Shown here: in pieces, positions 44,054-62,000 of the stretch
How positions within the stretch are numbered: position 1 is the first letter of the stretch
Layout: each line of letters begins with the position of its first letter
Source of the DNA: an uncultured Gammaproteobacteria bacterium
GTDB lineage: Bacteria; Patescibacteriota; Microgenomatia; Levybacterales; GWA1-39-11
Assembly: GCA_964409875.1 (NCBI GenBank)
Contig: CAYPEN010000001.1
Location: forward strand, 1,313 to 65,312
Direction: 5' to 3'
Length of the DNA stretch: 64,000 bases
The notes under the pieces: model-generated
Told to the model about the DNA's origin: nothing
The model's database searches: none
The model's input: only the letters and a program-made list of their open reading frames with translations
Position numbers and translations under genes: made by a program

Positions 44054-44148
44054 ATTTTTATTGTAGCAAATACGAAAAGGCACCCTTTTTCGCACGGCCA
44101 CTGTGGGCTTGTGCCCCCCCGCTAAGCGGGGGGAAGGGTGCCTTGAAC

Positions 44149-44409
44149 TTAGGTTATCGTGTCGTTTGAGTCGCCTCCTTTCGTATCCCGCGATGCGAGA
44201 AGCACCGTTTCCGGAACGCTGCTTCTCCCAGAAGCACGTCCTGTGTCATTGTATGGAGCATGGGCGAGGTATTGTCGCGCCATGTCTTGGGTGTACTTGC
44301 GGTCCCGCTCCTTCTTGCGCTTCTCCCTCCAAAGCGGGAGGAAGGCAAAGAGCATGATAAGGGTGAGGACCACAACGCTGAAGGCAGCTCTACCTAGGAC
44401 ACCTTCCAT
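44149..44409 (-). CDS. island-1 small membrane protein (about 86 aa)
   Basis: Start MEGVLGRAAFSVVVLTLIMLFAFLPLWREKRKK, with GGAGGAAAAGAGG immediately upstream of the ATG. One TM helix. The longer 171-aa form of the ORF track has an R/S-rich, implausible N-terminus. Confidence 0.45.
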   Translation of the reverse strand: MEGVLGRAAFSVVVLTLIMLFAFLPLWREKRKKERDRKYTQDMARQYLAHAPYNDTGRASGRSSVPETVLLASRDTKGGDSNDTIT

Positions 44410-44458
44410 CCTCTTTTCCTCCGTAGGGAAGATCTTGTACGGCTGGTGCCGTATGGGT

Positions 44459-44737
44459 TTACCCAGCCGGACTGGGAACCAGTGAGGACTCGGATGGGTC
44501 CAACGGCGAGATGTCGACGTGCAGATGACGCACATCTTCGAAGTTGAGCGCGATGACCTTTTCGAGGGCAACGCGATCTTCTTTGCTCCGGGCTGACCCG
44601 GCGTTGAAGCGGATGCTTGCGCGCAGGTTGGCCTCAAGCGACGGGTCGCTTGTAGGGATGTCACATTGGACGCGGATGGTCCCCCAGGAGAGCCTGATGT
44701 TTTCGTCGATGTGGATGAGGTCGTTGCTGCTGCTCAT
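44459..44737 (-). CDS. island-1 hypothetical protein (about 92 aa)
   Basis: Start MSSSNDLIHIDENIRLSWGT. Its ATG overlaps the stop of the upstream gene (ATGA-type coupling). No motif. Confidence 0.4.
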   Translation of the reverse strand: MSSSNDLIHIDENIRLSWGTIRVQCDIPTSDPSLEANLRASIRFNAGSARSKEDRVALEKVIALNFEDVRHLHVDISPLDPSESSLVPSPAG

Positions 44738-45201
44738 GCGAGGCCACCTGCGTGTGCAAGCCGGAAATCCTCGCTCCAATCTGTAGCCACGGGATGTACT
44801 CTCCGTGCCTCTTCTTGGCCGCGGGCGTGTGCTCTGGCCATCCGTCGCCGGAGAGCCTCCGTTAGAGTGTCGCTGTTGTTGAGCAGCTCGCGAAACGCAG
44901 CAATAGCGTCCGGCGTTTTGAAGACGACCGAAAGGCCATCCTCATACAGGTCGGTGAGCTTGTGGGCATTGCGCTTCATAAGCGCCACCCGGACTCCAGA
45001 CGCGACCCGGCCGGTCGCCTCGATGTGTTCCCGTCCGAGCTGGAATACGAATCCGCCGGCGAGGGCAAAATGGGTTGTGTCCCGGATCCAGAGCCGTTCA
45101 GGCTCGAAGCCGCTCTTTCTGAGAAGCGACCCGAACCATTCTGCGGTGGAAGCCTCTTTGTGCTCCCGGTCTTTCCAAAGTGACATTGACTGCTCCGCCA
45201 T
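44734..45201 (-). CDS. island-1 hypothetical protein (about 155 aa), possible C-terminal Rx4H (HEPN-like) motif
   Basis: Start MAEQSMSLWKDREHKE at 45201. The upstream part of the 214-aa ORF lies in AT-rich sequence and reads as low-complexity FFVFYKFF. C-terminus ALRRRMARAHARGQEEARR contains R-x4-H. Confidence 0.4.
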   Translation of the reverse strand: MAEQSMSLWKDREHKEASTAEWFGSLLRKSGFEPERLWIRDTTHFALAGGFVFQLGREHIEATGRVASGVRVALMKRNAHKLTDLYEDGLSVVFKTPDAIAAFRELLNNSDTLTEALRRRMARAHARGQEEARRVHPVATDWSEDFRLAHAGGLA

Positions 45202-45524
45202 ATTATTTTTCAAACTGATGTCTTGTTCAGCTTGAAGATGGCTTTTCGGCTGCAGTCTCTCAACAACCAAAAAGCCACCTTCAAAAATCCCAGCAAAATA
45301 AGGGAAATTTCCGAACAAGTGATAACCTAAATTTTCAAAGAACTTGTAAAAGACAAAAAATGGCACGCAAAAAGCCAAATGTTTTTTACAAAAACCAGTT
45401 ATTATACACGCTTAAAGCGGAAATGTTCAAGTAACATGTGAGTTGACAAAGAGTCTCATTTTTTTGGCTGTCTGTGATTGTTATACTTGACTGACTTTGC
45501 CATTCTCCTGTACTCTTAAAAAGT

Positions 45525-46883
45525 ATGATTTTTCAGAGTGTTTCAGAATTGGACCAGAACCTTGCAGATGTGGTACGCATGAATGACGAGGATATCTCGA
45601 TTAAGGACGAAGGAAAACTTCAGGAATTTGGTATCGATTACCTTATTTATTCAGCAGTGTTGTCCGATGACTCACAGGTTAGGCATTTATCCCGCGTCTA
45701 TATCAGAAAATTAGCCCGCAACCTTGGGATTTTTCCTGCTTCTATTTTTCCTCTGTACCAAGCGTATGGGGAGAAGAAAGTGAATGGGTTTACGGTTCCC
45801 GCAATGAATACACGGGCTTTGACGTATGATTTTGCCCGGGAAGTATTTAAGAAAGCAATTGTTCATGAAGCGCAAGCTTTTATTTTTGAGATATCCAGAA
45901 GCGAGATGGTATATACAAAACAGAATCAGGACGAGGTTGCTGTGTGTGTTTTGGCTGCTGCAATAAAAGAAGGATACCGGGGGCCTGTTTTTCTACAAGG
46001 AGACCATTACCAGTTCAATACCGGAAAGTTCAAGGAATATCCCCAGGGTCAAATAGACGAAATAGAACTTTCCATCAAAGACGCGTTGTCTGCAGGATTT
46101 TACAATATTGACATCGATGCATCGACATTAGTTGACCTTTCGCTTCCTACAAAAGACGAGCAACAAAAAGACAATTTTGAGATGACTGCACTCTTGACCA
46201 AATTCATCCGCAGTATGCAACCTGCAGGAGTGACCGTTGCTATAGGGGGCGAAATTGGACACATTGGGGAGAAGAATTCGGACGTTGGAGATTTTGAGGC
46301 GTTCATGAGCGGATATTTAGATAGGCTTGCAAATGAAAATCTCAATATTATTTCAAAAGTAAGTGTTCAGACGGGAACAAGCCATGGTGGAGTTCCTAAT
46401 CCAGACGGAACCCTAAAAGAAGTCAATGTGGATTTTGAAGTTCTAAAAAGTATCGGGGAAGTAGCAAGGGACAAATATGGCCTTGCGGGTCCGGTACAAC
46501 ACGGCGCGTCTACATTGCCAAATGAACTCTTTGATAAATTTCCCGAAGCGGGAACTGTTGAAATCCATTTGGCTACCGGGTTTTTAAGTATTATTTTCGA
46601 TACGATGCCTGATGCTTTACGGCAAAAAATGTATGAATATGTGACAACTACTCTTCAAAATGAACGCGAGGAGGGGTGGACTGACGAACAATTCCTATAT
46701 AAATTGAGGAAAAAAGCTGTTGGACCTTTCAAAAAAGATATGTGGCTTATGACCGAGGAGGAGAAAAATGTCATCCGTCAAAAGCTTTCTGACCAACTTG
46801 AAATATTATTCCAAAAATTAAATATTGTAGGAACCTCGCACACAGTGCATCAATATATCACAGAATCCTCCCTTCTGATATGA
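45525..46883 (+). CDS. fba: class II fructose-bisphosphate aldolase family protein
   Basis: VQTGTSHGGVP matches the class II aldolase signature IGTSHGAYK. Other conserved-looking blocks: FTVPAMNT near the N-terminus, QGDHYQF, VQHGAS. Confidence 0.7.
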   Translation: MIFQSVSELDQNLADVVRMNDEDISIKDEGKLQEFGIDYLIYSAVLSDDSQVRHLSRVYIRKLARNLGIFPASIFPLYQAYGEKKVNGFTVPAMNTRALTYDFAREVFKKAIVHEAQAFIFEISRSEMVYTKQNQDEVAVCVLAAAIKEGYRGPVFLQGDHYQFNTGKFKEYPQGQIDEIELSIKDALSAGFYNIDIDASTLVDLSLPTKDEQQKDNFEMTALLTKFIRSMQPAGVTVAIGGEIGHIGEKNSDVGDFEAFMSGYLDRLANENLNIISKVSVQTGTSHGGVPNPDGTLKEVNVDFEVLKSIGEVARDKYGLAGPVQHGASTLPNELFDKFPEAGTVEIHLATGFLSIIFDTMPDALRQKMYEYVTTTLQNEREEGWTDEQFLYKLRKKAVGPFKKDMWLMTEEEKNVIRQKLSDQLEILFQKLNIVGTSHTVHQYITESSLLI

Positions 46884-48064
46884 TAATCTACATAGACAAG
46901 GCGCATATCAAGCACAAGAGAGTGCTTTTGAGGGTTGATTTCAATGTCTCAATGAAAGGCAACCGGATCACTGATGACGAGCGCATCCGTTCAACGCTTC
47001 CGACAATATCAAAACTTCTCAAAGACGGGAATAAGATTATCCTTGTTTCACATTTAGGACGTCCTGAAGGATGGGATGACAAATTAGTCTTGCGTCCTAT
47101 CGCCAAAAGGCTTCATAAATATCTTCCACACGTTTCCCTTACCGTGGTTGATGATTTTATGTCCGAGGGGGCACAAAAAATTTTTGAAGAACAGAAATAT
47201 GGAGAAATCGTATTTCTTGAAAATATTCGCTTTTACGAAGAGGAAGAGGATCCTTCTACAAGTTCAGGACAAGAATTTGCGAGAAAATTAGCGTCCCTTG
47301 CTGATGTGTATGTCAACGATGCGTTTGGGGTTTCCCACAGGGAATGCGTATCCGTTACCGAAGTTCCTAAATTATTGCCGCATTATGGGGGGCTTCTTAT
47401 GGAACGTGAGGTTGAAACCATCGGGCACGCGCTCAAGCATCCCAAGCACCCGTTTGTAGCAATAATTGGAGGCGCAAAAGTCTCAACAAAATTAAAATTA
47501 TTATTCCGTCTTACAGAAATTGCAGATTATTTGGTTCTCGGGGGAGGACTTGCAAACACTTTGTTATTCGCTTTGGGTTATCCTGTTGGGAAAAGTTTGT
47601 GCGAAAAAGAGATGGTTGATGATGTCAAGAGGATAGTCAGGCACGCAAAAGAGACAAAAACGAAAATTCTCCTTCCTAGGGATGTTGTGGTGGGAAGCAA
47701 AGAAGGGAATGATAGTATCGTCAAAAAGATTTCAGAAGTGCAGCATAATGACATGATTCTGGATATCGGACCTGAGGCACAAGCAGACTACGCAAAAGCA
47801 ATACTTTCTTCAAAAACATTAATTTGGAATGGGCCTGTTGGGTATATGGAGAACCCGGAGTATGGCCGTGGTACGGATTTTTTGTACTACACAATTGCAC
47901 AAAACAAAGGATTGATATCAATTGTCGGAGGAGGAGATACATTGGCGGCAATTTCAAAAAAAGAATATTTGGACACAATCACCCATATCTCAACGGGTGG
48001 TGGGGCAATGCTTGAGTATATTGAAAATGGGACGCTCCCCGGAATTGAGGCATTAAAACAATAA
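46880..48064 (+). CDS. pgk: phosphoglycerate kinase
   Basis: KRVLLRVDFNVSM is the PGK N-terminal signature. IIGGAKVSTKL is the ATP-binding region. GGG near the C-terminus. 4-nt overlap with fba. Confidence 0.85.
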   Translation: MIIYIDKAHIKHKRVLLRVDFNVSMKGNRITDDERIRSTLPTISKLLKDGNKIILVSHLGRPEGWDDKLVLRPIAKRLHKYLPHVSLTVVDDFMSEGAQKIFEEQKYGEIVFLENIRFYEEEEDPSTSSGQEFARKLASLADVYVNDAFGVSHRECVSVTEVPKLLPHYGGLLMEREVETIGHALKHPKHPFVAIIGGAKVSTKLKLLFRLTEIADYLVLGGGLANTLLFALGYPVGKSLCEKEMVDDVKRIVRHAKETKTKILLPRDVVVGSKEGNDSIVKKISEVQHNDMILDIGPEAQADYAKAILSSKTLIWNGPVGYMENPEYGRGTDFLYYTIAQNKGLISIVGGGDTLAAISKKEYLDTITHISTGGGAMLEYIENGTLPGIEALKQ

Positions 48065-48132
48065 TCTTTGTAGGGTTCCCCCCGGGAACCCAAAGTAGGG
48101 TCCCCGAGGGGAGGAAAAGATCAGCGGAAGAG

Positions 48133-48324
48133 CTACACATGAGTGGCATTGCTGCCACCCATGCTTTTGACTGCGTGAAGCAGCCCTTTTCCAGCGAGGA
48201 AAACCAGCAAGTAGGCAACTGCTACCAGACTCCACATCAGAAGTTCTACCCACCAGCCGGTGCTGTTGGGGTTGGTGAACTCCTCAGGAGGGTAGGTGCC
48301 CGTGAAGGCATATGCTTTCTTCAT
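48133..48324 (-). CDS. island-2 small membrane protein (about 63 aa)
   Basis: MKKAYAFTGTYPPEEFTNPNSTGWWVELLMWSLVAVAYLLVFLAGKGLLHAVK has a C-terminal TM helix. Confidence 0.4.
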   Translation of the reverse strand: MKKAYAFTGTYPPEEFTNPNSTGWWVELLMWSLVAVAYLLVFLAGKGLLHAVKSMGGSNATHV

Positions 48325-48368
48325 CTGCGTTTTTCCAATGAGGGAGGTGAGACGTTGATGACGGGGCT

Positions 48369-48596
48369 TTACGCCCATTCTTTGCCTTCCGGCAGAAGCT
48401 TGGCTTCTCCTGAAAGGATGTCGGCGATGGTAGTTGATGTAGGATGGGTGTCACTGAGCGGGTTTTTTTCGAGAGCCGCTAGGTTGAATCCAAGCGCTCC
48501 TCTTTCGCACCAGCTTCCACAGTAGGTGAAACGAAGAACGTCTTTGGGGACCTTCGTCTCATCGTAGCGTTTTTTACAACGTTGGCACACTCTCAC
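48369..48596 (-). CDS. island-2 zinc-ribbon-like small protein (75 aa)
   Basis: GTG start. CQRCKK...YCGSWC gives four Cys in a CxxC-(21)-CxxxC arrangement. Confidence 0.4.
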   Translation of the reverse strand: MRVCQRCKKRYDETKVPKDVLRFTYCGSWCERGALGFNLAALEKNPLSDTHPTSTTIADILSGEAKLLPEGKEWA

Positions 48597-48597
48597 G

Positions 48598-48735
48598 TCA
48601 ATTCTCTGTTGGGTTGGGGCCGACTATCAAGCCGACGATGATGGTTGAGATGATGAGCGCGATGGCTGCAATGAGGGTCGCTGCGACGCATCCCTTTGGA
48701 AGAGGCTCTACCGAGTCATGCGACGTATCGTTCAT
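48598..48735 (-). CDS. island-2 small membrane peptide (45 aa)
   Basis: MNDTSHDSVEPLPKGCVAATLIAAIALIISTIIVGLIVGPNPTEN. Its stop is 1 nt from the GTG of the zinc-ribbon gene, which suggests coupling. Confidence 0.35.
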   Translation of the reverse strand: MNDTSHDSVEPLPKGCVAATLIAAIALIISTIIVGLIVGPNPTEN

Positions 48736-48866
48736 GTATTTCCTTTCTGACCTTTTTCAATGTGCAAGGAGGGGATGCCCCTCCACGCCGTTGAGGAAGG
48801 GGTCCAAACCTCACGCAGGCAATTATAGGCCTTCGAAATTAAAAAAACAATGGAAAGTGGACGAGG

Positions 48867-49529
48867 TTATACCTTAAATTTAAGGAAATATTCCTTCTTT
48901 GGGAGTTTTTCAAGGACGCTTAAAATCGTATCGCAATCATGTTTTTGACTTCTATGAGCACGCATTGCTTTTACTTTCGTTTCCCAAACAGTTTCAACAG
49001 AGACCTCCCAATCGGTTTGTTCTTTTACATATCCTTCAGGGAAGTAAATAAAATAATCACCCTGTTGCCGCCTGCGCTCCTCTTTTAGTATGCAGTAATA
49101 ATACAAATCCTTTATACTTTTCATGTGACTCACAACGTAGGTTACTACAAAACTCACCGTAATGTGGTCGATGTGCCCTGAGATGCCGCGTGGTTCAAAA
49201 GTTATAACCATATGGGGCTTTAATGCTTTGAATTTGCTTTTGAGCTTTTTAGCGATAGCGTGATATACACTATTAGAAAGGGTGCCGTCAACAAAGCCCA
49301 GACAGTATACTTTTTTGATCCCGAGTGTTTTGGCCGATTCTAAAAGTTCACTTTTCCGAATATTAGATAGCTTGTTTTCGGGATGTTTGATGCTATTTTT
49401 TCCGGCTTCTCCACCTGTAACACATATTAAATAAACATCGTGGGTTTTTGCCAATATGGCCAGAGTGCCAGCAGGGCCGAAGGCTTCGTCATCAGGATGG
49501 GCAAAAACAGCAACTACTGTTTTTCTCAT
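48867..49529 (-). CDS. PIG-L/LmbE-family N-acetylglucosaminyl deacetylase
   Basis: AHPDDE motif (VFAHPDDEAFGPAG). HxxH/D-containing GISGHIDH. Confidence 0.75.
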   Translation of the reverse strand: MRKTVVAVFAHPDDEAFGPAGTLAILAKTHDVYLICVTGGEAGKNSIKHPENKLSNIRKSELLESAKTLGIKKVYCLGFVDGTLSNSVYHAIAKKLKSKFKALKPHMVITFEPRGISGHIDHITVSFVVTYVVSHMKSIKDLYYYCILKEERRRQQGDYFIYFPEGYVKEQTDWEVSVETVWETKVKAMRAHRSQKHDCDTILSVLEKLPKKEYFLKFKV

Positions 49530-49560
49530 GTACCGGAATTATACACCAAGAATGCAAGAA

Positions 49561-50448
49561 TTAGAGGCTGAGGCGGAGCCCTGGGCTCATGGTAGACTTA
49601 AGCGTCACGGATGAGATTTTTTCGTTACCAACGCTTGAAAGAAAAGTTTTTATATTATCTTTGAGCTTGTTATCCTCAAAGCTTACTTTTCCGACAATGG
49701 CATGAATTATTGGGGCTTCACTTTCGGTTTTGAAACTGATTTGTCCGCCTGAAAGCTTTTTTACCGCTTCTTCAGGGTTTTCCGCAATTGTCCCATTTTT
49801 TGGATTTGGCATGAGCCCGCGGGGACCGAGAATCTTTGCGACCCGGGCAAGCTGCGGCATCATTTGGGGAGTTGCAACAAGCACATCAAAATTTATTTTT
49901 CCTTTGGCAACTTCAGCTAGTATTGCATCATCAGCGATTTTTATAACCAAAGTTTTTCCGGTCCCGTGTGGAAGGACAACTTGACCGCTGATTCCTTTTT
50001 CGCGGGTATTGATATGAAGCTCTACAGTTTCATCAAATTTTGATTTTTTGAACTTTTTAAGAGCTTCTAGCGCTTGGTCGAGTGAATAAGACTGAGTTTT
50101 TGAAACGAGCGTCTGGTTTTCTTTGTGTCTTTTTGATTCAACTTTGGCGTTAGCCTTTGCGAATTTTTCTTTTTTTGCTTTTTTCACCGGCTTTTCATCA
50201 ACAGGTTGGGCATCGGATTGTTTTTCTTCTTTTGCTTCTGCTGCATCTACTTTTGAAAGGTCCTCTGTTGCCTCAAGTTGTGCTTCAACAGCATCTTTTG
50301 CGACCGGTTCTTCAACCGTTTCCATTTCACCCTTTTCAGCCTTTTTTGCAGCCATCTTTTCAGCCTTTTTTGCTTCCCGTTTTGCTTTCAGTTTTGCCTC
50401 TTCCTCAGGGGAAGTTTCATCAAATGATTTAACTCTTATTTTACCCAT
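49561..50448 (-). CDS. rplA: 50S ribosomal protein L1 with about 110-aa K/E/A-rich N-terminal extension
   Basis: Core VELHINTREKG...LPHGTGKT...GPRGLMPNPKNGTI matches L1. The N-terminal region is low-complexity KKAEK/AKKEK. Confidence 0.85.
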   Translation of the reverse strand: MGKIRVKSFDETSPEEEAKLKAKREAKKAEKMAAKKAEKGEMETVEEPVAKDAVEAQLEATEDLSKVDAAEAKEEKQSDAQPVDEKPVKKAKKEKFAKANAKVESKRHKENQTLVSKTQSYSLDQALEALKKFKKSKFDETVELHINTREKGISGQVVLPHGTGKTLVIKIADDAILAEVAKGKINFDVLVATPQMMPQLARVAKILGPRGLMPNPKNGTIAENPEEAVKKLSGGQISFKTESEAPIIHAIVGKVSFEDNKLKDNIKTFLSSVGNEKISSVTLKSTMSPGLRLSL

Positions 50449-50565
50449 AATATTTAAAATTTTTAATTTTTAATTCTTAATTTATAATGAATGTTTCAAT
50501 TCTTTAATTTTAAAATTTAATCATTTGAATTTGATTTTAAATTTAAAATTTGAATTTAAAAATTC
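50449..50565. repeat. AT-rich element related to both flanks of the four-helix-bundle cassette, with no cargo
   Basis: aaaatttttaatttttaa matches the left flank 8631-8648. catttgaatttgattttaaatttaaaatttgaatttaaaaatt matches the right flank 9041-9080. They are in the same order but only about 40 nt apart. Confidence 0.35.
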
Positions 50566-50575
50566 TATTCTTGGT

Positions 50576-50626
50576 AAAGAACAAGCTCTGCTTATTCTTG
50601 ACTAAGAACAAGCTCTGCTTATTCTT
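50576..50626. repeat. tandem duplication of a hairpin-forming unit aagaacaagctctgcttattcttg in the rplK-rplA intergenic region
   Basis: Two adjacent copies. Each can fold as AAGAACAAGC-TCT-GCTTATTCTT with one mismatch. Confidence 0.6.
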
Positions 50627-51044
50627 GTACCTTTATACCCATCGAGCGGGCGGTCCCCTTTACGATTCTCGATGCCATTTCATCGTCTTTTGTATTCAAA
50701 TCGTCCATTTTCTTTCTTGCAACATTCAGAATTTGTTCCTTTGTGAGAGTTGCTGCAACCTCCCGGCCTGGTTTTTGTGAACCTTTCTCAATTTTCAGCT
50801 CCATTTTGATAAGTTCTGACATCGGCGGTTTTTTGACGATGAATGAAAATGTTCTATCTTCATATACCGAAATAACAACAGGGAGTAGAATCCCTTTTTG
50901 ATCTGAGGTTTTGTCATTGAAAGCCTTCACGAATTCCATGATTGGAAGTCCGTGGGGACCAAGAGCGGTACCAACAGGTGGTGCGGGAGTAGCCTCGCCA
51001 CCCTTGATAGCCAATTTTATGTATGTTTTTACCTTTTTTGCCAT
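50619..51044 (-). CDS. rplK: 50S ribosomal protein L11
   Basis: MAKKVKTYIKLAIKGGEATPAPPVGTALGPHGL is the L11 N-domain with the PPVGPALG signature. Confidence 0.85.
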   Translation of the reverse strand: MAKKVKTYIKLAIKGGEATPAPPVGTALGPHGLPIMEFVKAFNDKTSDQKGILLPVVISVYEDRTFSFIVKKPPMSELIKMELKIEKGSQKPGREVAATLTKEQILNVARKKMDDLNTKDDEMASRIVKGTARSMGIKVQE

Positions 51045-51165
51045 ATGTAGCTTATGTAATAAGCGAAATAAAGACTGGCTTCCTTAAAGTTTTGTTTGCG
51101 AAGCAAACTAAACTGAATCTTAATAAGGTGCCTGTGCTTATAAAGTCCTTTTAAAGTTTCAGTGA

Positions 51166-52059
51166 TTATATCTTCGAAACCTGAAGGAAGTCAAGCTCAA
51201 CGGGTGTTTCCCGTCCAAAAATTGAGACAAGTACTTTGACTTTCCCTTTTGCCTCATCAATTGACTCGACAGTTCCCAAAAAGTCTGAGAATGGTCCGTC
51301 TGTGATTTTGACTGCTTCTCCTTGAGTGAATTGCGCTTTGTAAACCGGTTCTTTTTGGCCTACGAATGCGACAATTGCCTGGACTTCATCATCTCTAATA
51401 GGAGTTGGTTTGTTCTGTGCACCTACAAATGAAGTAACACCTGGAGTGGTTCTCACCAAGACCCACGCTTCATCTGACAAATCCATGTTGACCAAAATGT
51501 ATCCGGGGAAGATTTTCTCCTTGATTGTTTCTTTTTTACCTCCACGGACTCGGATAGTGTCTCTCGTTGGAACAAGCGCGTCAAAAATTCTCTCTTCAAA
51601 TCCCATCGCCTGGACTCTTTGCATCAAGGTCTTTGCAACCTTGTTCTCGTGCCCGGAGTAGGTGTGGACGATATACCATTTTCCTCTATATTCTTTTTTG
51701 GGCGTAACGGGTGCTGGTGCGGGAGTTGCCTCTTCTTTGGCCGGCTCTTCCGCAGCTGCTTCCTCTATCATGTCCGTTGCATCTTCGGAAGTTTCCTCTG
51801 CACTTTCTTCGTTTGGGGCGGGGTCGACTACTTCGCTTTCTTCAATAGGCGCCTCAGGCGAATCCTGAATTTCATCAGCTACCGTTTCTTCAGCTTGATT
51901 TTCCTGAGTATCATCAGCCGGTACAGCTGATGCCAGTCCATCTTGCGATTCCGTGTCATCAGCTGGAACAGCTGATGCCATCATGTCATCCAGTGACATT
52001 TCGTCTGTATTATTTTGGTCTAATGTTTCCTCTTGTTTTAATTCGTCTTGTGTGTCCAT
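51166..52059 (-). CDS. nusG: transcription antiterminator NusG with about 120-aa acidic repeat-containing N-terminal extension
   Basis: NGN domain KWYIVHTYSGHENKV. KOW domain GEAVKITDGPFSDFLGTVESID. N-extension has a duplicated ASAVPADDT(E/Q) unit. Confidence 0.85.
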   Translation of the reverse strand: MDTQDELKQEETLDQNNTDEMSLDDMMASAVPADDTESQDGLASAVPADDTQENQAEETVADEIQDSPEAPIEESEVVDPAPNEESAEETSEDATDMIEEAAAEEPAKEEATPAPAPVTPKKEYRGKWYIVHTYSGHENKVAKTLMQRVQAMGFEERIFDALVPTRDTIRVRGGKKETIKEKIFPGYILVNMDLSDEAWVLVRTTPGVTSFVGAQNKPTPIRDDEVQAIVAFVGQKEPVYKAQFTQGEAVKITDGPFSDFLGTVESIDEAKGKVKVLVSIFGRETPVELDFLQVSKI

Positions 52060-52097
52060 AGATTAGTTGTTAGCTATTATCTATTAGCTATTAAATA

Positions 52098-52271: not shown

Positions 52272-52334
52272 AGCTTTCGATTATACATAAATAAGCTCAA
52301 TATGTAAAGTGTTTGACAATTCACAGTAAGCAAT

Positions 52335-52440
52335 TTAGACTTTACATATAGTAATTTTCAATTTTTAATTTTAAATTTTTAAATAAAACATTTTAATATC
52401 ATTGAAAATTATAAATTTAGAATTTAAAATTAGTTGATAT
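52335..52440. repeat. AT-rich element, third copy, with no cargo
   Basis: ttcaatttttaattttaaatttttaaataaaa resembles ttcaatttttaagctcaaatttttaatttttaaacaaataaaa at 8616-8657. aaatttagaatttaaaatt resembles the right-flank motif. It sits in the secE/galU divergent region. Confidence 0.35.
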
Positions 52441-53685: not shown

Positions 53686-54717
53686 ATGTCAGTAGTCTCC
53701 GAGCTTGGTGTTTCCCATGAATTGCCTTCAAGCTCACCGGAGGGTGTGTGGATATTTCCGGCGCAAGGAGACCTCAAGCCCGGAATCGGAAAAGAAGAAT
53801 ATATGACTTCCCCTGCTTTTCGCGCGCTCGTTGATACGGCTGACGAAATCATCGGAGGGGAGAGAAAATTTTCAGAGACAATTTTCGATGACCCCGATGG
53901 GGTTCTTGCTTCCCCTCCCAATGCGCATTTAGCACTCACAATAATTACTCTTGCAAAGCTTGAAATGGGAGTTGAGCAAGGAAAAATAACTGCTGCACCT
54001 ACTTCTATTATCAGTAACAGCGCTGGTGAAGTTGCTGCATTGTACGCTGCCGGCGTCACAAAAACGCTTGAACAAACTCTAAGAATTGCCAAAAAAAGAG
54101 GGGAGCTGACTGAAGAGGCAAGCCGGGGACATGATGTTCTGATGACAACTCTTTTAGCAACGAATGCAAATGTGAACATTTTGGAAAAAGCACAACTCGT
54201 TGTTGATGCTCTTACCGGGCGGGAGCAGGAAAATGAAGGGAAAGATACGGTTGTAATAAGCGGCATCAACTCACCGGTTTCAATTGGCCTTACCGGAGAC
54301 AGAAGGTTGGTGGAAGAAGCAAAGGCTCATTTGAAAGATATATCAAGAAAGCAAAATGATATGGATATGATAAAAATCGCATCCCACTGCGGAATAATGG
54401 AGGATGCTTCAAAAAAGTTTGGGGAATTTCTAAAAGGTGAGGAATTGAACGACCCACTGGTTGAGATGAATATGAATGGGGTAACGGCAAAAACATTAGA
54501 TGAAGTTTTGGAGAGGCTTGAGAAAGGGTTGGTAGAGCCTGTAGATTTTGTATCTTCTGTTGGAAATGTCACGACTGACGGTCAAGCGCCGACATTGTAC
54601 GAATTGTCGACCAAGCAAGTTGACCCTGTAAAAGGTGAAATTACCTCCGTCTGGGGAAGATTTGCGAATGACACGTTAAAGGCACAAGAAAAAGAATTGA
54701 AAGTAGTTGTTATATAG
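53686..54717 (+). CDS. FabD-like acyltransferase (ACP S-malonyltransferase family), divergent
   Basis: FPAQGDLKPGIG versus FabD FPGQGSQ. The nucleophile region ISNSAGEVAALYAAGV aligns with GHSLGEYSALVCAGV, with the Ser kept and His replaced by Asn. The downstream RGEL...EA block is conserved. Confidence 0.55.
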   Translation: MSVVSELGVSHELPSSSPEGVWIFPAQGDLKPGIGKEEYMTSPAFRALVDTADEIIGGERKFSETIFDDPDGVLASPPNAHLALTIITLAKLEMGVEQGKITAAPTSIISNSAGEVAALYAAGVTKTLEQTLRIAKKRGELTEEASRGHDVLMTTLLATNANVNILEKAQLVVDALTGREQENEGKDTVVISGINSPVSIGLTGDRRLVEEAKAHLKDISRKQNDMDMIKIASHCGIMEDASKKFGEFLKGEELNDPLVEMNMNGVTAKTLDEVLERLEKGLVEPVDFVSSVGNVTTDGQAPTLYELSTKQVDPVKGEITSVWGRFANDTLKAQEKELKVVVI

Positions 54718-55534
54718 TATTAACCGTTTTGTGGGGCAGGTACGTTGGTGGGACGATTTTTGTAAATTCATCAAATACGAACCTGTCTATGTTTCCCATC
54801 CCATCAACTTCAAGCTTATTTTTTGCCGCGTGTTCTGAAGACTTCTCAAGTGCCTCACTGAGTGTGAATGTGGGGCCATGATACACATCATAACTTCTGA
54901 AAAAATTAAATCCCTTCCGTTCGCCATAGTCTTCGGTTCCCGGTATACCAAAGGACATCAAATGGATGCCAATATTTGGAGTTTTTCTTGCAGCAATTCT
55001 GAGCAGCCCATTCACACTATCTTCCCCTTGATATTCAAGAGTGGCACGCCTCGTTGCCTGGGGAGCCATGATAACGACTTCGCCGCTTTCAAGGGCTCTC
55101 GTGGCGGCTTTTATATATGGGAGACTTCCGCTACCGACCCGAAGGTCACAGGGTATGCCTTTATCCAGTTCTTTTTGAATTGTTGCCGGGGTAACAACTG
55201 GATACATGTCAACACCCATCCGCTTTCCGACTGGAGGCACCATGCCTCGCACCGTCTGGTGCTTTGCAATTGGTCCGGTTATCTTCGTGTTTTTGAAAAC
55301 TTTTGACCTCATGAACGTATCCATTGCTTGCTCAGGGTCGCGTCTTGAAAAATGAGTGATAAGTGCTAATATTCCATATCCTTCCTGATGCAGTTCTTCA
55401 GCCCGTTGCATGCCATTGGTAACATGGATATTTTCACTAGGTAAAAACCATGGTTCCAGAACTCTTCTTGCAACTTGACGCGCAGCTTTCTGGGAAAAGT
55501 TTATTTCTTGTTGGGGGTTCTCAGGATGAGTCAT
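54710..55534 (-). CDS. lysophospholipid/glycerol-phosphate acyltransferase family protein (PlsC-like)
   Basis: HxxxxD motif in ITHFSRRDP. Size and position next to the FabD-like gene fit a lipid-metabolism role. Confidence 0.55.
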   Translation of the reverse strand: MTHPENPQQEINFSQKAARQVARRVLEPWFLPSENIHVTNGMQRAEELHQEGYGILALITHFSRRDPEQAMDTFMRSKVFKNTKITGPIAKHQTVRGMVPPVGKRMGVDMYPVVTPATIQKELDKGIPCDLRVGSGSLPYIKAATRALESGEVVIMAPQATRRATLEYQGEDSVNGLLRIAARKTPNIGIHLMSFGIPGTEDYGERKGFNFFRSYDVYHGPTFTLSEALEKSSEHAAKNKLEVDGMGNIDRFVFDEFTKIVPPTYLPHKTVNTI

Positions 55535-55806
55535 TAAGTTGTGATTGTATCACATTATAATTACGAGTAAAGAAAATGGAAATATTCAAACTATATAATC
55601 TCATAGTAATTGCGTTTTCCTTCAAAAATTAGTATAATTTGCAGGTTTTGAAATACTCAAACGGTTTGCATGTTTGGGATATTTCACTGCACATTTACAA
55701 CTTGGTTGCTTAAAACAATTTGTAGTCCTATACGGGAATGAAGTATTTTCGTTACCGGACAGGACTACAAAAAAATCGGTGGAATACCGAATGAAAGGAA
55801 AAAAAG

Positions 55807-56121
55807 TTGGAACCTGATCCTGCTCAAGTATTGCTTGAGTGGAAGAGGCTCGTCAGTGAGGGTAGGCTTCAAGCCGCAGACAAGATGGTCTGGGGATATG
55901 ACTCAGGCACCATTTCCGCAGTAGCGGATCTGTGTTTTGGGGTGGCCTCTGTAAATCCTAAGCTGCGGGACATGTACCAGTGGCTTGGACAGGAAATGCG
56001 CCGGAAGGCGTCTCTCAAGATAAAAGAGGAAAACGGCAAGACCGTGCGCATAAGCACGGCAGAGTACGCCGCGTACCTCCGGATGACTGACACTTCAGGG
56101 ACTCGTTTCGACAAGCCCTAG
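55807..56121 (+). CDS. island-3 hypothetical protein (104 aa)
   Basis: TTG start per the ORF track. No motif. Confidence 0.35.
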   Translation: MEPDPAQVLLEWKRLVSEGRLQAADKMVWGYDSGTISAVADLCFGVASVNPKLRDMYQWLGQEMRRKASLKIKEENGKTVRISTAEYAAYLRMTDTSGTRFDKP

Positions 56122-56180
56122 AGGCAAGCCTCCGCTTCATGCGGAGAGAAACATTCGACCCTCAAAGGGAGGTAAACGAG

Positions 56181-56288
56181 ATGAAATTCTTCGTACTACT
56201 GGTGGCCTGCACGCTTGGTCTCATCCTGCTCATGCGGGAGAAAGACGACGATGGTTACTACCGCGGAGGACCATCTGTTCTCGACTAG
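56181..56288 (+). CDS. island-3 small hydrophobic peptide (35 aa)
   Basis: MKFFVLLVACTLGLILLMREKDDDGYYRGGPSVLD. AGGGAGG Shine-Dalgarno 8 nt upstream. Not in the ORF track. Confidence 0.35.
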   Translation: MKFFVLLVACTLGLILLMREKDDDGYYRGGPSVLD

Positions 56289-56340
56289 CCCCGTGCACCG
56301 CGCGGGAGAAACATTCGACCTAAGCTCACGGGGAGGTATC

Positions 56341-56676
56341 GTGTCAGACAAAACCAACAGTCAACGGCTCGCACAGCGGGCGGTTGACCTTCGTTTCCGA
56401 CAGGCTCTCATCGAGCATGGAGCGTTCCGGTACGGAGTAACCGTACTTGAGTACGGAAGCGTAGAGCTCTCGGAGCAATACGTGACAAGAGAGGGTGCAC
56501 GTCGTGCCCTCAGGGTTGCTATCGTCAGCGACAAGGTATCTATACACGCCTACAATGGCCTGCGCGTCGTGCCGGTCGAGGATGAAAGCGGCCATCAGCC
56601 GGCCCAGACGATGGGCATCACCGGGGAGGTCGACTTTGACCTTAGCGTTCACTCAGTGCGGTTTGCAACCCACTAA
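56341..56676 (+). CDS. island-3 hypothetical protein (about 111 aa)
   Basis: GTG start preceded by GGGGAGGT. The ORF-track form starting at 56215 would run through the upstream peptide gene region. Confidence 0.4.
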   Translation: MSDKTNSQRLAQRAVDLRFRQALIEHGAFRYGVTVLEYGSVELSEQYVTREGARRALRVAIVSDKVSIHAYNGLRVVPVEDESGHQPAQTMGITGEVDFDLSVHSVRFATH

Positions 56677-56773
56677 CAGCAACCAAGTCCAGGGGGCGCG
56701 ACTCATTCGCGCCCCCGCCATCACTTCTACATCCTTCTTGAGTTCAAGACCTCATTCGTTTAAACTTACACAT

Positions 56774-58504
56774 ATGAATATTGTTAATGAGATTGGCAGT
56801 GAATTAGTTCATATAGCGCGAGAAATTTGCGGTGACGGATTGGAATTTGATGTTTCCTTTACATCAGATCTTTCGAAAGGAGATATAGCTTCAAATATTG
56901 CCCTTATCCATTTTAAAAAACTTGGGTTTCAAAACCCTAGAGAGGCAGCCGAAAAAATTAAAGGAATATATGAGGAAATGGGTGATCCTTGTATTAAAAA
57001 GATAGAAGTTGCAGGCCCAGGCTTTATTAATTTCTTTTTGAGCTCAAAATACCTCTCGCAAATGCTTCAAGAAATTGTTCAGAGTAACGGGTTGCAGGAA
57101 AGTTTGAATAAAAATAATCCGCAAAAAGTTATCGTCGAATTCGGCGACCCAAATCCATTCAAAGAAATCCACATAGGGCATTTGAGAAACTTTTCTATTG
57201 GGGAGAGTTTTTCAAGACTCCTTGAGGCACATGGTAACACTGTGATAAGAGCAAATTATCAGGGGGACGTTGGTCTTCATGTTGCAAAGGCAATGTGGGG
57301 ACTTTTGAAGCGCGAAGAGAAATTCTTGGACGAAAGTTTGGGTGAGGAAGAAAAGGTAAAAATTTTGGCCGAATCGTATGTTGAGGGGGCAACGGAGTTT
57401 GAAAATAATGAAGAGGCAAAGAAGGAAATTATCGAAATCAACAAGAAAATATATAGTGATGATGAAAGTTTGCATGCTCTTTGGGAAGAAGGGAGAAAAG
57501 TCAGTCTTGAGCATTTTGAAGAATTGTACAAAAGAATTGGTATAAGCTACGACAAGTATTATTTCGAGTCGGTTACGGCAAAAAAAGGGAAGGAAGTTGT
57601 TCTGTCCCACATTGAGGATGGAGTTTTTGAAAAAGACGACGGGGCGGTTATTTATCGGGGTGAAAAGGATGGACTTCACACAAGAGTCTTTCTGACCTCC
57701 CAAGACTACGCAACTTATGAGGGGAAAGACTTGGCTTTGGCAATTCTTAAAAACGAAGATGAACCGTGTGATGAATCCGTCATTTTGACAGGTAACGAGC
57801 AATTAGAATATTTTCAGGTGATGCTCGCAGCACTTAAGAGAATTGCGCCTGAATTGGCTCAGAAAACCAGGCATTTAACTTTCGGGCATGTAAGGCTCAA
57901 AGAAGGGAAAATGTCTTCAAGAACCGGGGACGTCATAACCGCTTCTTGGCTGCTGGATGAGGCTGTTTCACAAGTCAAGAAAGCATTTCCGGAGATGGAT
58001 GAAGGAACCGCTGAAAAGGTTGGGGTAGGGGCGGTTAAATATTCAATGTTGAGGTTTTCCATCCCTTCTGACATTCACTTTTCTTTCGAGGAGTCCATAT
58101 CTTTGGAGGGGAATTCGGGTCCATATTTGCAGTATTCTTATGTGAGGACACAAAGTGTTCTTGCTAAAGCAAATGCTCAATGGCCAATAGCTAATAGCCA
58201 AAATGATCTGGAAAATTTTAGCTATCAACTATCAGCTATAAGTTATAATGATGAAGAAAGTCAGCTGCTTCGATATCTTGCTCAGTTTCCTTTCCACTTG
58301 GAGCAGGCGGCAAATGAATTTGCACCGAATTTGATATGCAATTATCTCTTTGAGCTTGCCCAGAAATTCAACCTTTTTTATCAGAAGCACAAAATAATAG
58401 GAAGCGAAAATGAAGCATTTAGACTTTCTCTTACAAAGGCAGTAGGACAAGTTCTTCAAAACGGCCTCAAAATCCTCGGAATTGAAACGGTTGAGAGGAT
58501 GTAG
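56774..58504 (+). CDS. argS: arginine--tRNA ligase
   Basis: Start MNIVNEIG at 56774. The ORF-track start at 56495 lies in the GC-rich island and gives an R/S-rich N-terminus. HIGH motif (EIHIGHLRN). MSSR is KMSKS-like. C-terminal DALR-type ending ...IETVERM. Confidence 0.85.
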   Translation: MNIVNEIGSELVHIAREICGDGLEFDVSFTSDLSKGDIASNIALIHFKKLGFQNPREAAEKIKGIYEEMGDPCIKKIEVAGPGFINFFLSSKYLSQMLQEIVQSNGLQESLNKNNPQKVIVEFGDPNPFKEIHIGHLRNFSIGESFSRLLEAHGNTVIRANYQGDVGLHVAKAMWGLLKREEKFLDESLGEEEKVKILAESYVEGATEFENNEEAKKEIIEINKKIYSDDESLHALWEEGRKVSLEHFEELYKRIGISYDKYYFESVTAKKGKEVVLSHIEDGVFEKDDGAVIYRGEKDGLHTRVFLTSQDYATYEGKDLALAILKNEDEPCDESVILTGNEQLEYFQVMLAALKRIAPELAQKTRHLTFGHVRLKEGKMSSRTGDVITASWLLDEAVSQVKKAFPEMDEGTAEKVGVGAVKYSMLRFSIPSDIHFSFEESISLEGNSGPYLQYSYVRTQSVLAKANAQWPIANSQNDLENFSYQLSAISYNDEESQLLRYLAQFPFHLEQAANEFAPNLICNYLFELAQKFNLFYQKHKIIGSENEAFRLSLTKAVGQVLQNGLKILGIETVERM

Positions 58505-58505
58505 C

Positions 58506-60212: not shown

Positions 60213-60280
60213 AGTGGCGGATATTATACAAAAAGTATCCTGTAGTGTCAATATTAAGAAGAAAAAGTGCCGGAAATTAT

Positions 60281-61534
60281 TTACTTGGCGGAAGGAAGCG
60301 GGTGCTCCTTTTCCCATTCATCAACCCTCTGAAGAATTGCAAGCATTATCTCTTCCCTCTGTTGCTTGTTCAATCTTTTATTTTTCAGTATAGCTGTCGT
60401 AAGTCCATCAGCAAAGGTAAACATCATATGGTGGTCATTTGATGACGGTTCAAGTTTTAATGTTCCGTCATGTTGAAGCCTGTCGCTATCGTCGCTATGA
60501 AACCCGAATGCTTCATTAGCAGCGTTTGGTTTGAATCTCTGCCGCATGTCAATGACACGGTTTTTGGCAATGTACTTTGCAATTTCAGCGTCAACAATTG
60601 CTAAAGCATCGAACTCTCTTTTCGGCGCTCTTTCTCTGGTTATTGGTGCAGGTTTTGGTGTAGCAGCCGTAGGTTGGAATTCCTCAGGATGGAAAAAATC
60701 ATAAATTTTTTCACGGAATTCATTTCTCATCTGTCGGGACCCATTTGCGGTTGTAGCTCCTCTTATAAATGACCAGGCATCCACTTCTGCTGCACTTGCA
60801 TCTCCTTCCGTAATCTTTGAATATAATTTTGTGAATAACGCATTTATTAACCGTTCTGCATCTGTTTCTGAAAACGGATAGCGAGCAGTTTGATTTAACG
60901 CGTCTAAAACCCCCTCAATTGTTCCCCCATTTGCTATAAGTTGGAGAGCATGAAGCTTACTTGAATCGATGCCAGGTTCCTGTAGTATTTGGGTTTCAGC
61001 AGGCACGTGAGGTGTCTCAACAGGAGGAACTACCGCATGTTCCGGTGGGTTCTTTTCTGGTTGGTCGGCCGATGGTAAGACTGAGGGATGGAGTTCTTCG
61101 TCTATTTTTCTCAACGCTTCCTCTACCATTCCAATTACACTTTGGTTGGTCAAAGCACCTTTGCCTTCAAGTTCTCTCAATTCATGCAGATTCATGGTGT
61201 ATTCCGCAGCATCTGAGAGTAATTGTTGGCGGTCTGCAATTTTTTCCTTGAGCGAGCGCTGCAATTCCTCAAGTGCCGGTAGGGACCTATGCATTATGGC
61301 ATCGTTCACCCGGGAACTTGCGAGTGTTGTCGCAATTAGCTCTTTCAAGTAATTTGGGTGGTCGGGGGTAGGGGGAATGTATTTCTCAGGACCTTGAAAA
61401 TCGGGTGTTCCAATTGTTGCAGAAATGTGCTCAAGTTTGGTAGCTGCTGTGGCGAATTTATCAGCACGTTCTTGAAGCTGCGCTATTTCCGGAGGGGTTT
61501 GTCCTCTGTCTTCCATATAAAAATATTGTAGCAA
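60281..61534 (-). CDS. hypothetical coiled-coil protein, possible paralog of the downstream gene
   Basis: 417 aa. Its N-terminal region is loosely similar to the neighbour: ATIGTPDFQGP versus ETIGTAEFAPV. Confidence 0.45.
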   Translation of the reverse strand: MLQYFYMEDRGQTPPEIAQLQERADKFATAATKLEHISATIGTPDFQGPEKYIPPTPDHPNYLKELIATTLASSRVNDAIMHRSLPALEELQRSLKEKIADRQQLLSDAAEYTMNLHELRELEGKGALTNQSVIGMVEEALRKIDEELHPSVLPSADQPEKNPPEHAVVPPVETPHVPAETQILQEPGIDSSKLHALQLIANGGTIEGVLDALNQTARYPFSETDAERLINALFTKLYSKITEGDASAAEVDAWSFIRGATTANGSRQMRNEFREKIYDFFHPEEFQPTAATPKPAPITRERAPKREFDALAIVDAEIAKYIAKNRVIDMRQRFKPNAANEAFGFHSDDSDRLQHDGTLKLEPSSNDHHMMFTFADGLTTAILKNKRLNKQQREEIMLAILQRVDEWEKEHPLPSAK

Positions 61535-61559
61535 AAAGAAAAAGTGCCGGAAGGGAAGG

Positions 61560-62000
61560 TTTGGAACCTACAAAACACTCAGATAAGCTCTGAGTTGCCT
61601 TCCGGCCAAAGTCGGTTACTACACTGCGGGAGTGGGGCCTAGCGCGCCTGCGCTTGGGAGACCGTTAGCCGTTGGGCAGGGACACGGTCGTTGTTGTTGA
61701 GCTTGAAGCTCTCATCGCGTTGCCGTTTCTTGGCAGCTTTTCGAGCTTCGTCGCGTTGCCGGGCTGCAGACCGGGCGGCTTTCACGAAGAGACCCCGACA
61801 GGCTGCAGCTTCGTGGCCGCAAACCTACCAGAGACGGAAGCGGTGAGGGTCCTTGTTGTGGACCCTCCGGGCGTAGGGCCTTGTTGGGCCTTCCGCGCCA
61901 TGCGCCTGTTCTTGGAAGCTTTCTGCCTCCATGGTTCTCTCGCTTTGCTCAAGTTGCCTCTCCTGATTGTGTTGTGCCCCTAACCGCAGTGTTGTTCCCA
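61560..62000. other. GC-rich island 4 (about 60% GC, about 440 bp)
   Basis: Composition shift between two AT-rich intergenic stretches. G/C hairpin AGCGC-GCCT-GCGCT at 61641-61654. Only short ORFs. A minus-strand 35-aa ORF (MEAESFQEQ...FRLW) is followed in frame, after a TAG, by a basic segment KAARSAARQRDEARKAAKKRQRDESFKL. Confidence 0.5.

Follow-up and report, generated by a model that had tools for sequence, protein, structure and literature searches.

Segments of high GC content in low-GC genomes are routinely taken as products of horizontal transfer. Genes for rRNA and tRNA are also GC-rich in such genomes, through the need for stable RNA helices, and in rRNA operons the 5′ and 3′ flanks pair over a long range as processing stalks that bracket the RNA. 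How, then, should GC-rich segments be read if they carry small open reading frames (ORFs) and pair between their ends? Four such segments, islands 1 to 4, lie in the 64,000 nucleotides (nt) analysed here (contig CAYPEN010000001.1 of assembly GCA_964409875.1; hereafter the window), which belong to a 42%-GC genome of the Patescibacteria type. The mechanistically closest known system appears to be that of type I toxin mRNAs, such as hok and aapA, in which a 5′-3′ long-distance interaction keeps the full-length mRNA stable and translationally inert until its 3′ trimming (PMC6733600). The reading preferred here, which we believe and doubt in about equal measure, is that the four islands are resident modules specific to one Patescibacteria clade and not recent imports, that they are transcribed into hyper-structured mRNAs, clamped end to end in islands 1, 3 and 4, and that their GC content is kept by selection on RNA structure.

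Each module would be one unit with a sigma-70-type TATAAT promoter, an AT-rich structured leader of 100-250 nt, two or three small ORFs and a G/C-rich terminal hairpin, and its ORFs would code for membrane peptides of 35-86 amino acids (aa) and for small soluble proteins, one with a MotA-like double wing and one with a Cys4 ribbon (Table 1). Like hok/Sok and aapA/IsoA, some of the islands would encode small hydrophobic peptides (i3B of 35 aa and i2A of 45 aa; i1C and i2C, of 86 and 81 aa, are above the toxin limit of 60 aa) and have a GC-rich structured mRNA closed by a conserved 5′-3′ helix (islands 1, 3 and 4; in island 2 it is predicted only). Still, the islands do not fully match this toxin family: they are polycistronic, extend over 0.5-1.3 kb and include conserved soluble proteins, their clamp arms sequester no Shine-Dalgarno (SD) sequence, a consensus scan gave no convincing antisense promoter or terminator inside them, island 4 has no hydrophobic peptide, and toxicity of the island peptides is only putative. 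With horizontally acquired genomic islands they share a sharp deviation in GC and in GC at third codon positions (GC3), a location between housekeeping genes, small ORFans and an initiation style unlike that of the host. Unlike acquired islands, they are found at the same sites across relatives and under purifying selection, their GC3 is not ameliorated, and their promoters and leaders are AT-rich and resemble native ones. The searches described below gave no homologues in a donor, no mobility genes, no att sites and no association with a tRNA. The local rise in GC, and the pairing of flanks that brackets an RNA of 0.4-1.2 kb, are reminiscent of GC-rich structural RNA genes and rRNA stalks, but the island RNAs code for proteins, their helices of 9-13 base pairs (bp) are shorter than RNase III stalks, and they belong to no known RNA family. 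Integron cassettes, too, have small and often unknown ORFs behind a resident promoter, a structured element at ORF boundaries and variable content. In contrast to integrons, neither intI nor attI was found here (the neighbours were scanned for an integrase domain), the unit of AGCC, hairpin and GAGAAACATTCGACC has no attC cores (RYYYAAC/GTTRRRY) and keeps its sequence, where attC sites keep their structure, and the position of i3C is fixed in all genomes but L083.

Composition and conservation of the islands

In a sliding profile (120-300 nt), GC is 0.53-0.58 in the islands against a whole-window mean of 0.424, and GC3 is 0.51-0.73 in island ORFs against 0.24-0.44 in 45 native genes. The rise affects the spacers as well as each of the three codon positions, and the island boundaries are sharp, within tens of nt. 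A sequence-only reading of the window had described the four GC jumps, the GC3-rich codon usage, the placement between intact native genes and the G/C-rich terminal hairpins, all of which hold, and the four palindromes quoted by it were located at 44113-44133 (CCCCCCCGC..GCGGGGGG), 48073-48091 (GGGTTCCCCCCGGGAACCC), 56692-56716 (GGGGGCGCG..CGCGCCCCC) and about 61641-61654 (AGCGCgcctGCGCT). The start that it placed 1 nt past the pgk stop has to be corrected, as the hairpin on the pgk side begins 9 nt after that stop. The flanking genes are intact, housekeeping or conserved, and typical of a Patescibacteria-type genome; the neighbours encode class II aldolase, Pgk, PIG-L deacetylase, uL1, uL11, NusG, GalU, FabD, ArgS, M16 peptidase and a DUF5671 protein. 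No segment comparable to the islands appears elsewhere in the profile of the window, and two further candidates were rejected. A stretch of about 50% GC at 0.35-8.6 kb is a single ORF of 2751 aa (351-8606 (+)), GC-rich at codon positions 1 and 2 (0.50 and 0.52) with an ordinary GC3 of 0.41. This ORF, which probably encodes a giant surface or repeat protein, explains the GC of the left end. At 63.5-64 kb, there is an ordinary leaderless hydrolase-like gene instead of a fifth island.

The islands were compared with relatives labelled L083, L084, L087, L091, L092, L093, L094, L098 and L280, in RNA and comparative alignments of 3-7 sequences. According to the sequence-only reading, the islands might have been acquired independently, four times, from a high-GC donor (the host of an episymbiont was given as an example), and other genomes were to be checked at the same sites. 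The idea of such acquisitions finds no support: islands 1, 3 and 4 occupy the same junctions in relatives of this genome (L083, L084, L087, L091, L094, L098 and L280 taken together), and protein searches with i1A and i3C gave relatives in the context of this clade only.

The whole i1A-i1B-i1C operon occurs in L094 and L098 between fba and the hyp231/SurA genes, together with its promoter, leader and outer terminator stem (GGCACCCTT/AAGGGTGCC), which is identical in both while the inner hairpins differ. The products of i1B and i1C match those of the second and the last ORF of the L094 island with 47% identity across 75 aa and with 40% identity, respectively. i1A has homologues at the protein level (E 8e-43); when 1.84 billion representatives were searched exhaustively with HMMER, six matches came up, of which the three significant ones are clade relatives, and no high-GC context was identified for the six. 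The two best matches, whose context was checked, lie at the same locus, between the fba and hyp231/SurA genes. In the i1A family, GC3 is 0.55-0.62 against 0.33-0.34 in the neighbours, at protein identities of 34-54%. The predicted fold of i1A is confident and resembles the C-terminal double-wing domain of phage T4 MotA at 11-15% sequence identity, with no match at the sequence level and without the N-terminal MotA domain. i1A may carry a MotA-like double wing, and DNA binding would be only putative.

For i3C, a word-indexed search found 10 homologue clusters of 68-98% identity, 9 of which keep the length of 111 aa. Wherever enough of the flank is available, the gene stands next to argS, on its upstream side and within a GC-rich island, L083 being the exception, and every cluster whose context was checked is clade-internal. 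Five orthologues have 30-56 differences at third positions against 6-21 at positions 1 and 2; i3C is therefore protein-coding under purifying selection. Its GC3 is 0.59-0.71 in five lineages and that of the adjacent argS and M16 genes 0.33-0.43, and its divergence at fourfold sites is 0.25-0.51, against mostly 0.54-0.71 in the flanks (0.38 in one argS pair). Residues 45-76 of the i3C family profile resemble one blade of designed 'Pizza' beta-propellers (PDB; E 8e-9 summed over repeats, with no single significant stretch), and this likeness may at most be a weak lead to an oligomerising beta motif of the blade type. A structure predicted for i3C with AlphaFold had a pLDDT of 54 and was disregarded.

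Upstream of i3C, ORF content differs between genomes and mostly consists of transmembrane (TM) peptides of 35-82 aa, different ones of which occupy the position of i3B, and i3A has a frameshifted copy in L083, 40-68% identical. In this genome, two tandem island-3-type modules stand before argS (L083:7700-9830), each with TATAAT, leader, 5′ arm, 3′ arm and G/C hairpin. One of them carries i3C, and the other, located between i3C and argS, carries the frameshifted i3A copy and an 82-aa TM protein. The post-pgk site of L083 has a cassette (L083:2305-2559 (-)) that codes for an 84-aa stand-alone Lrp/AsnC RAM-domain protein (PF01037, 35 bits versus a cut-off of 25) with a GC3 of 0.67, and that shares with island 2 the same CCTATAAT promoter and terminal G/C hairpin design. 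A family of small cassettes, as supposed earlier, thus finds its counterpart in module families, namely the tandem modules and the other GC-rich cassette of L083, while the supposition that they are selfish or defence-like may still hold but gets no positive support from PADLOC, PHROGs and Pfam.

Islands 2 and 4 are less firmly coding. i2B has a weak match to the Pfam VATC treble-clef (E 0.015, below the cut-off), and its homologue search was empty, which is uninformative because gene calling on the Logan contig returned none of the island 2 ORFs. Island 4 has counterparts upstream of the M16 gene in L084, L083 and L087, and its outer terminator stem is kept in L084. It contains two tiny basic candidate ORFs, i4A and i4B, and no hydrophobic peptide; codon periodicity is absent in the comparison with L084, and the most conserved parts are the 5′ region, the central hairpin and the 3′ arm. 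An in-frame TAG between i4A and i4B (61822-61824 (-)) is CGG in L084, where one ORF of 132 aa reads through; this TAG could mean a pseudogene, stop-codon read-through or a non-coding region. The earlier description of discrete transcription units with small ORFs (membrane peptides, a Cys4 ribbon and unknowns) is right in general, with the reservation that the ORFs of island 4 are not confirmed as coding.

GC3 stays at 0.55-0.71 across lineages with about 25-50% fourfold-site divergence, even at 34% protein identity, and its amelioration with divergence is seen neither in i3C (five lineages) nor in the i1A homologues. The high GC is therefore maintained, and does not represent what is left of a recent import as it decays. 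Such islands are rare across some 1.25 Mb of wider Patescibacteria loci around galU, and the nearest GTDB representatives (77-78% GalU identity) have none, so that the islands are specific to a narrow clade. Sequence searches of Pfam, PHROGs, PADLOC, NCBIfam and PDB gave no family for the island proteins, with no PADLOC matches at E<=0.1 and with noise alone (E>0.03) in PHROGs. Nothing relevant was found in the literature on GC-rich islands or leaderless translation in Patescibacteria.

RNA structure and the predicted end-to-end helix

Leaders are lacking in nearly all native genes of the window, where the ATG follows the end of a TATAAT-like box at a distance of 6-8 nt (e.g., 19662, 31015, 33100, 42330, 48867(-) and 62178), and an SD-like motif is found in only 2 of 45. 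The island ORFs form polycistrons behind AT-rich leaders of 100-250 nt, several of them with GGAGG, and are the only leadered SD-using genes seen. Island promoters and leaders are AT-rich and native-like, and because such leaders precede the GC-rich ORFs, the GC boundary is internal to the transcription unit. The two hairpins of the island 3 leader recur with differing sequences in L091, L084, L087 and L280, with no net covariation bonus in this small alignment. A TTTGCRTG box shared by the island leaders was rejected (7 observed versus 7.4 expected). The argS gene has its own promoter (TTGAGTTCAAG..N..TAAACT, 56738-56773, 7 nt before the ATG), which is also present in L091, L084, L087, L280 and L281; as this promoter is conserved right after the island 3 hairpin, argS is a separate leaderless unit. 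It was also considered that GC-rich ORFs were inserted behind a resident argS leader, but the outgroups L002 and L003 do not have that leader.

The island transcripts are predicted to fold more stably than their composition implies. The minimum free energy (MFE) of 150-nt windows was compared with dinucleotide shuffles, with nine native genes as control, and the z-score of the sense strand is -1.57 in the islands (n=37) and -0.23 in the native genes (n=117; Mann-Whitney p=1.3e-7); the MFE itself is -43 to -52 kcal/mol per 150 nt against -27 to -34. In the i3C unit, an alignment of seven sequences has compensatory changes in 21 of 125 predicted pairs, while the number is 8.6 +/- 2.1 in shuffles (0/500) and 7-10 in slid controls. 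The alignment scores 0.222 for covariation, versus 0.166 and about 0.07 in the controls, and the covariation reaches into the coding region. Rfam 15 has no match to the islands at gathering thresholds, only noise for islands 1 and 3 at E<=5-10.

The internal ORFs of the islands upstream of argS all follow the same kind of unit, which consists of the upstream stop (usually TAG), AGCC, a paired hairpin with a variable stem, GAGAAACAUUCGACC, a stretch of 10-40 nt, and the SD and start. Nine copies of the 15-mer GAGAAACAUUCGACC, from five genomes, are the same, L280 as a more distant relative has a slight variant, and helix 1 of the first unit in the window has compensatory changes in 4 of its 7 pairs. 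Exact scans with the 15-mer GAGAAACATTCGACC gave 61 single matches in viral contigs and at least 120 in metagenome contigs, none with the hairpin context or island proteins; they are for this reason regarded as chance.

The ends of the transcripts are also predicted to pair with each other. In islands 1, 3 and 4, the best duplex between leader and trailer is the same orthologous pair in every genome, with 9-13 bp, and its 3′ arm is located at the last stop codon or within about 15 nt after it. These helices form in unconstrained full-length folds over 354-1162 nt with a mean pair probability of 0.91-0.99 (0.91 in island 1, 0.98 in island 3 and 0.99 in island 4), and they form in the folds of 10 of 12 orthologous transcripts. 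For island 1, only 3-6 of 200 shuffles reach the clamp in each of the window, L094 and L098, and its helix (AAUUUAGGUUAUC/GAUAACCUAAGUU) has an extra U-A pair in the window relative to the two relatives, which is a compensatory insertion. For island 4 (ACACUGCGG/CCGCAGUGU), the L083 pair ACACUGCAG/CUGCAGUGU shows a compensatory change from G-C to A-U. The first start follows the clamp arms at 50-115 nt, and the arms have no overlap with a ribosome-binding site (RBS), whose probability of being unpaired is 0.2-0.66; sequestration of the SD by the clamp was therefore rejected. In the full-length fold of island 2, a helix of 11 bp is predicted between CUGCGUGAGGU (48808-48818 (-)), a few nt past the predicted transcript start, and GCUUCACGCAG (48171-48181 (-)), within the 3′ part of i2C.

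Weighing the explanations

How could such modules work? High GC at codon positions and in spacers might be the footprint of RNA-structure selection in a 42%-GC genome, which would then explain the depressed synonymous divergence of i3C. With the clamp, the full-length mRNA would be compact and have a long life, and a post-transcriptional gate might control the output of the small proteins, either by processing at the conserved hairpin and GAGAAACAUUCGACC intercistronic units or by opening of the clamp when a ribosome arrives at the last stop codon. It is conceivable, with more doubt than belief on our side, that the islands represent an undescribed class of gene unit, coding 'RNA islands' whose polycistronic mRNAs are made like structured RNAs, with an AT-rich leader that resembles a riboregulator, conserved helices in the GC-rich coding body, hairpin units of invariant sequence between the cistrons and a clamp from leader to last stop, and in which translation termination at the last cistron or site-specific processing switches the RNA between a stored and an active state.

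Several observations weigh against selection on clamped mRNAs. The strand specificity of the folding excess is modest, with a z of -1.57 on the sense and -1.02 on the antisense strand (p=0.04), the covariation test of i3C used a structure derived from the same small alignment, and promoters, transcript ends and folds are all predictions. Support for the clamp from sequence changes consists of one double compensatory change and one compensatory insertion, and island 3 (ACUUGGUUGCU/AGCAACCAAGU) has only G.U changes in relatives. An end helix of at least 9 bp is also present in the MFE folds of 7 of 30 native transcripts, and so closure in the MFE fold is weak by itself and the weight rests on conservation and compensation. 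Because the clamp arms cover no RBS and the RBSs are only partly occluded, the gating mechanism is speculative. Island 2 has no orthologue, and in L083, the sole genome for comparison, the site after pgk is taken by a GC-rich cassette unrelated to it, which fits an exchange of cassettes at least as well. Divergence of islands and flanks is decoupled: at 87-90% identity of fba, i1A has 58% in one relative and 34% in a second one, and 96% for galU goes with 69% for i3C. The flanks are also mosaic, with argS of L091 nearest to that of L084, and the L091 island and its upstream genes nearest to the window. From this decoupling and mosaicism, the lower synonymous divergence of i3C could come from exchange and not from constraint.

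These last points are those expected if the islands are exchangeable GC-rich cassettes from a plasmid, a phage or another lineage, possibly a high-GC donor, which are swapped by homologous recombination through leader, terminator and flanks at a few permissive sites and have the composition of their pool. We judge such a pool improbable, yet serious enough to be weighed in full. It would accommodate the unrelated cassettes after pgk with their common CCTATAAT promoter and G/C hairpin, the variable ORFs upstream of argS with two tandem modules in L083, the decoupled divergence and mosaic flanks, a fourfold divergence of i3C below that of its flanks, and SD-led polycistrons unlike the leaderless native genes. 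It has more difficulty with the lack of any vehicle: no integrase, transposase, recombinase or att-like feature, no flanking direct repeats and no tRNA were found at the islands (the nearest 13 kb have no tRNA either), and Pfam, PHROG and NCBIfam scans of the neighbours gave no mobility domains. Homologues were not found outside the chromosomal context of the clade, the viral and metagenome 15-mer matches being chance. Leaders and clamp arms co-vary with the islands, the island 1 operon is collinear in three deep lineages, and a cassette pool does not predict the excess RNA structure and covariation.

Three other explanations are unlikely. GC-biased gene conversion at recombination hot spots might have raised GC with neither RNA selection nor foreign origin, in line with a recombinogenic, mosaic region and with GC raised at all three codon positions and in spacers; we give it little credence, since the sharp boundaries match the ORF block and terminator and leave out the leader of the same unit, and adjacent genes share the breakpoints yet have an ordinary GC3 of 0.33-0.43. 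To our knowledge, the effect of +0.25-0.30 in GC3 is also much above bacterial reports of biased gene conversion. About as little credence, or a shade less, goes to the islands being large structured non-coding RNAs with small ORFs as by-products of high GC, a reading that may still hold for islands 2 and 4. Strong structure is predicted in all islands, the ORFs of island 2 are candidates only, and island 4 lacks codon periodicity, has a stop that is a sense codon in L084 and is conserved mainly in its 5′ region, central hairpin and 3′ arm; but the third-position bias and constant length of i3C, the protein-level homologues and confident fold of i1A, and the conservation of i1B, i1C and i3B as proteins speak for coding, and no Rfam family matched. 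Finally, that assembly chimeras or contaminating reads made the islands is hardly to be entertained, having composition and nothing else in its favour. A Logan assembly of run SRR11845634, which may share reads with the window, is 99.993% identical over 43309-58064, spanning three islands, i1A is found on the same three contigs as pgk of this genome, and orthologous islands are known from metagenome-assembled genomes and contigs of independent samples; misassembly is thus very unlikely.

The GC signature here is better explained by conserved resident modules, most plausibly through mRNA-structure selection, than by horizontal transfer. If this is confirmed, detection of transfer by composition needs a caveat for Patescibacteria and similar genomes, conserved 5′-3′ clamps on the kilobase scale would be known from polycistronic operons and not just from tiny toxin mRNAs, and there would be a handle on the small proteins (membrane peptides, the MotA-like protein and the i3C family) that one clade of the candidate phyla radiation (CPR) keeps beside argS, pgk and fba. 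If the notion of coding RNA islands holds, compositional islands would mark RNA-level regulation and not horizontal transfer, and these islands would be the only leadered SD-dependent mRNAs in an otherwise leaderless lineage. They may also serve as a test case of how dual constraint on protein and RNA lowers synonymous divergence.

Features of the islands and their neighbourhood

Table 1. Islands 1 to 4 and their predicted elements (positions in the window)
Feature	Positions	Strand	Details
Island 1	44044-45213		GC 0.58; between hyp231 and fba
Promoter TTGAAC-18-TATAAT	45401-45430	(-)	Consensus scan 10/12; TATAAT kept in L094 and L098
AT-rich leader	45202-45400	(-)	High nucleotide-level conservation in L094 and L098; holds 5′ arm of end-to-end helix
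5′ arm AAUUUAGGUUAUC	45321-45333	(-)	Top 5′/3′ duplex in window, L094 and L098
i1A	44734-45201	(-)	155-aa soluble protein; predicted fold like the MotA C-terminal double wing
i1B	44459-44737	(-)	92 aa; start overlaps i1A stop (ATGA); GC3 0.73
i1C	44149-44409	(-)	86 aa; N-terminal TM helix and charged tail; GGAGG SD; called as gene on Logan contig
3′ arm GAUAACCUAAGUU	44146-44158	(-)	Covers last three i1C codons and stop
Terminator	44079-44142	(-)	Outer stem GGCACCCUU/AAGGGUGCC and U-run around inner hairpin CCCCCCGC..GCGGGGGG
Island 2	47991-48832		GC 0.53; between pgk and PIG-L deacetylase
-10 box CCTATAAT	48822-48827	(-)	From sequence; at AT/GC boundary
i2A	48598-48735	(-)	Candidate ORF; 45-aa TM peptide; GC3 0.65
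i2B	48369-48596	(-)	Candidate ORF; 75 aa; CxxC...CxxxC, zinc-ribbon-like
i2C	48133-48378	(-)	Candidate ORF; 81-aa (or 63-aa) TM protein; GC3 0.62
Terminal hairpin GGGUUCCCGGGGGGAACCC	48073-48091	(-)	9 nt from convergent pgk stop
Island 3	55805-56772		GC 0.56; between hyp274 and argS
-10 box TATAATTTGCAGG	55633-55638	(+)	Conserved in five genomes
AT-rich structured leader	55646-55806	(+)	Hairpin 1, invariant core GCACAUU..CUUGGUUGCU, hairpin 2; MFE z = -5.1
5′ arm ACUUGGUUGCU	55700-55710	(+)	Top duplex in window, L091, L084, L280 and both L083 modules
i3A	55807-56121	(+)	104-aa ORF; TTG start
Intercistronic unit 1	56127-56160	(+)	AGCC, variable hairpin, GAGAAACAUUCGACC
i3B	56181-56288	(+)	35-aa TM peptide; GGGAGG SD; 86% identical in L091-L093
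Intercistronic unit 2	56287-56320	(+)	TAG stop, AGCC, hairpin, GAGAAACAUUCGACC
i3C	56341-56676	(+)	111 aa; GTG start; GGGGAGG SD; invariant C-terminal motif GEVDFDLSVHSVRF
3′ arm AGCAACCAAGU	56678-56688	(+)	Begins 2 nt past i3C stop
Terminal hairpin GGGGGCGCG..CGCGCCCCC	56692-56716	(+)	No U-run
Island 4	61528-62009		GC 0.57; between hyp417 and M16 peptidase
-10 box TATACT	62080-62085	(-)	From sequence
5′ arm ACACUGCGG	61984-61992	(-)	Same pair in L084, L083 and L087
Body	61639-61952	(-)	Candidate i4A 61825-61932 and i4B 61639-61785; alternative-frame K/R-rich ORF 61782-61952; conserved central hairpin CACGAAG..CUUCGUG
3′ arm CCGCAGUGU	61621-61629	(-)	
Terminator	61546-61606	(-)	Outer stem GCCGGAAGG/CCUUCCGGC and U-run around inner hairpin CUCAGA..UCUGAG

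The genes around the islands differ in their resemblance from one relative to another. GalU is 58% identical to that of L084 and 96-97% identical to those of L091 and L280, and the M16 peptidase is 94% identical to that of L084 but ArgS 76%. Such strong mosaicism among the window, L084, L091, L280, L094 and L098 points to frequent recombination in the region. In L084, fabD and the hydrolase-like gene that follows M16 are in fragments and are pseudogenes (L084:1404-2253 and 7061-7989), and an 86-aa fragment of a Y1 transposase (IS200/IS605-type) is located there.

Two neighbours in the window are longer than their NCBIfam models: NusG (51166-52059 (-)) has an N-terminal extension of about 127 aa, and uL1 (rplA, 49561-50448 (-)) an extension of about 170 aa. 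Within the nusG extension, a palindromic repeat of 28 nt (GTATCATCAGCCGGTACAGCTGATGCCA) occurs in two near-identical copies, at 51908 and 51953, and there is a local GC bump of 0.50-0.53. The rplK-nusG-secE block is flanked by intergenic stretches with a GC of 0.27-0.31 (50449-50620 and 52280-52432), which hold families of direct and inverted repeats of the AATTTTTAATTTTTAA type.

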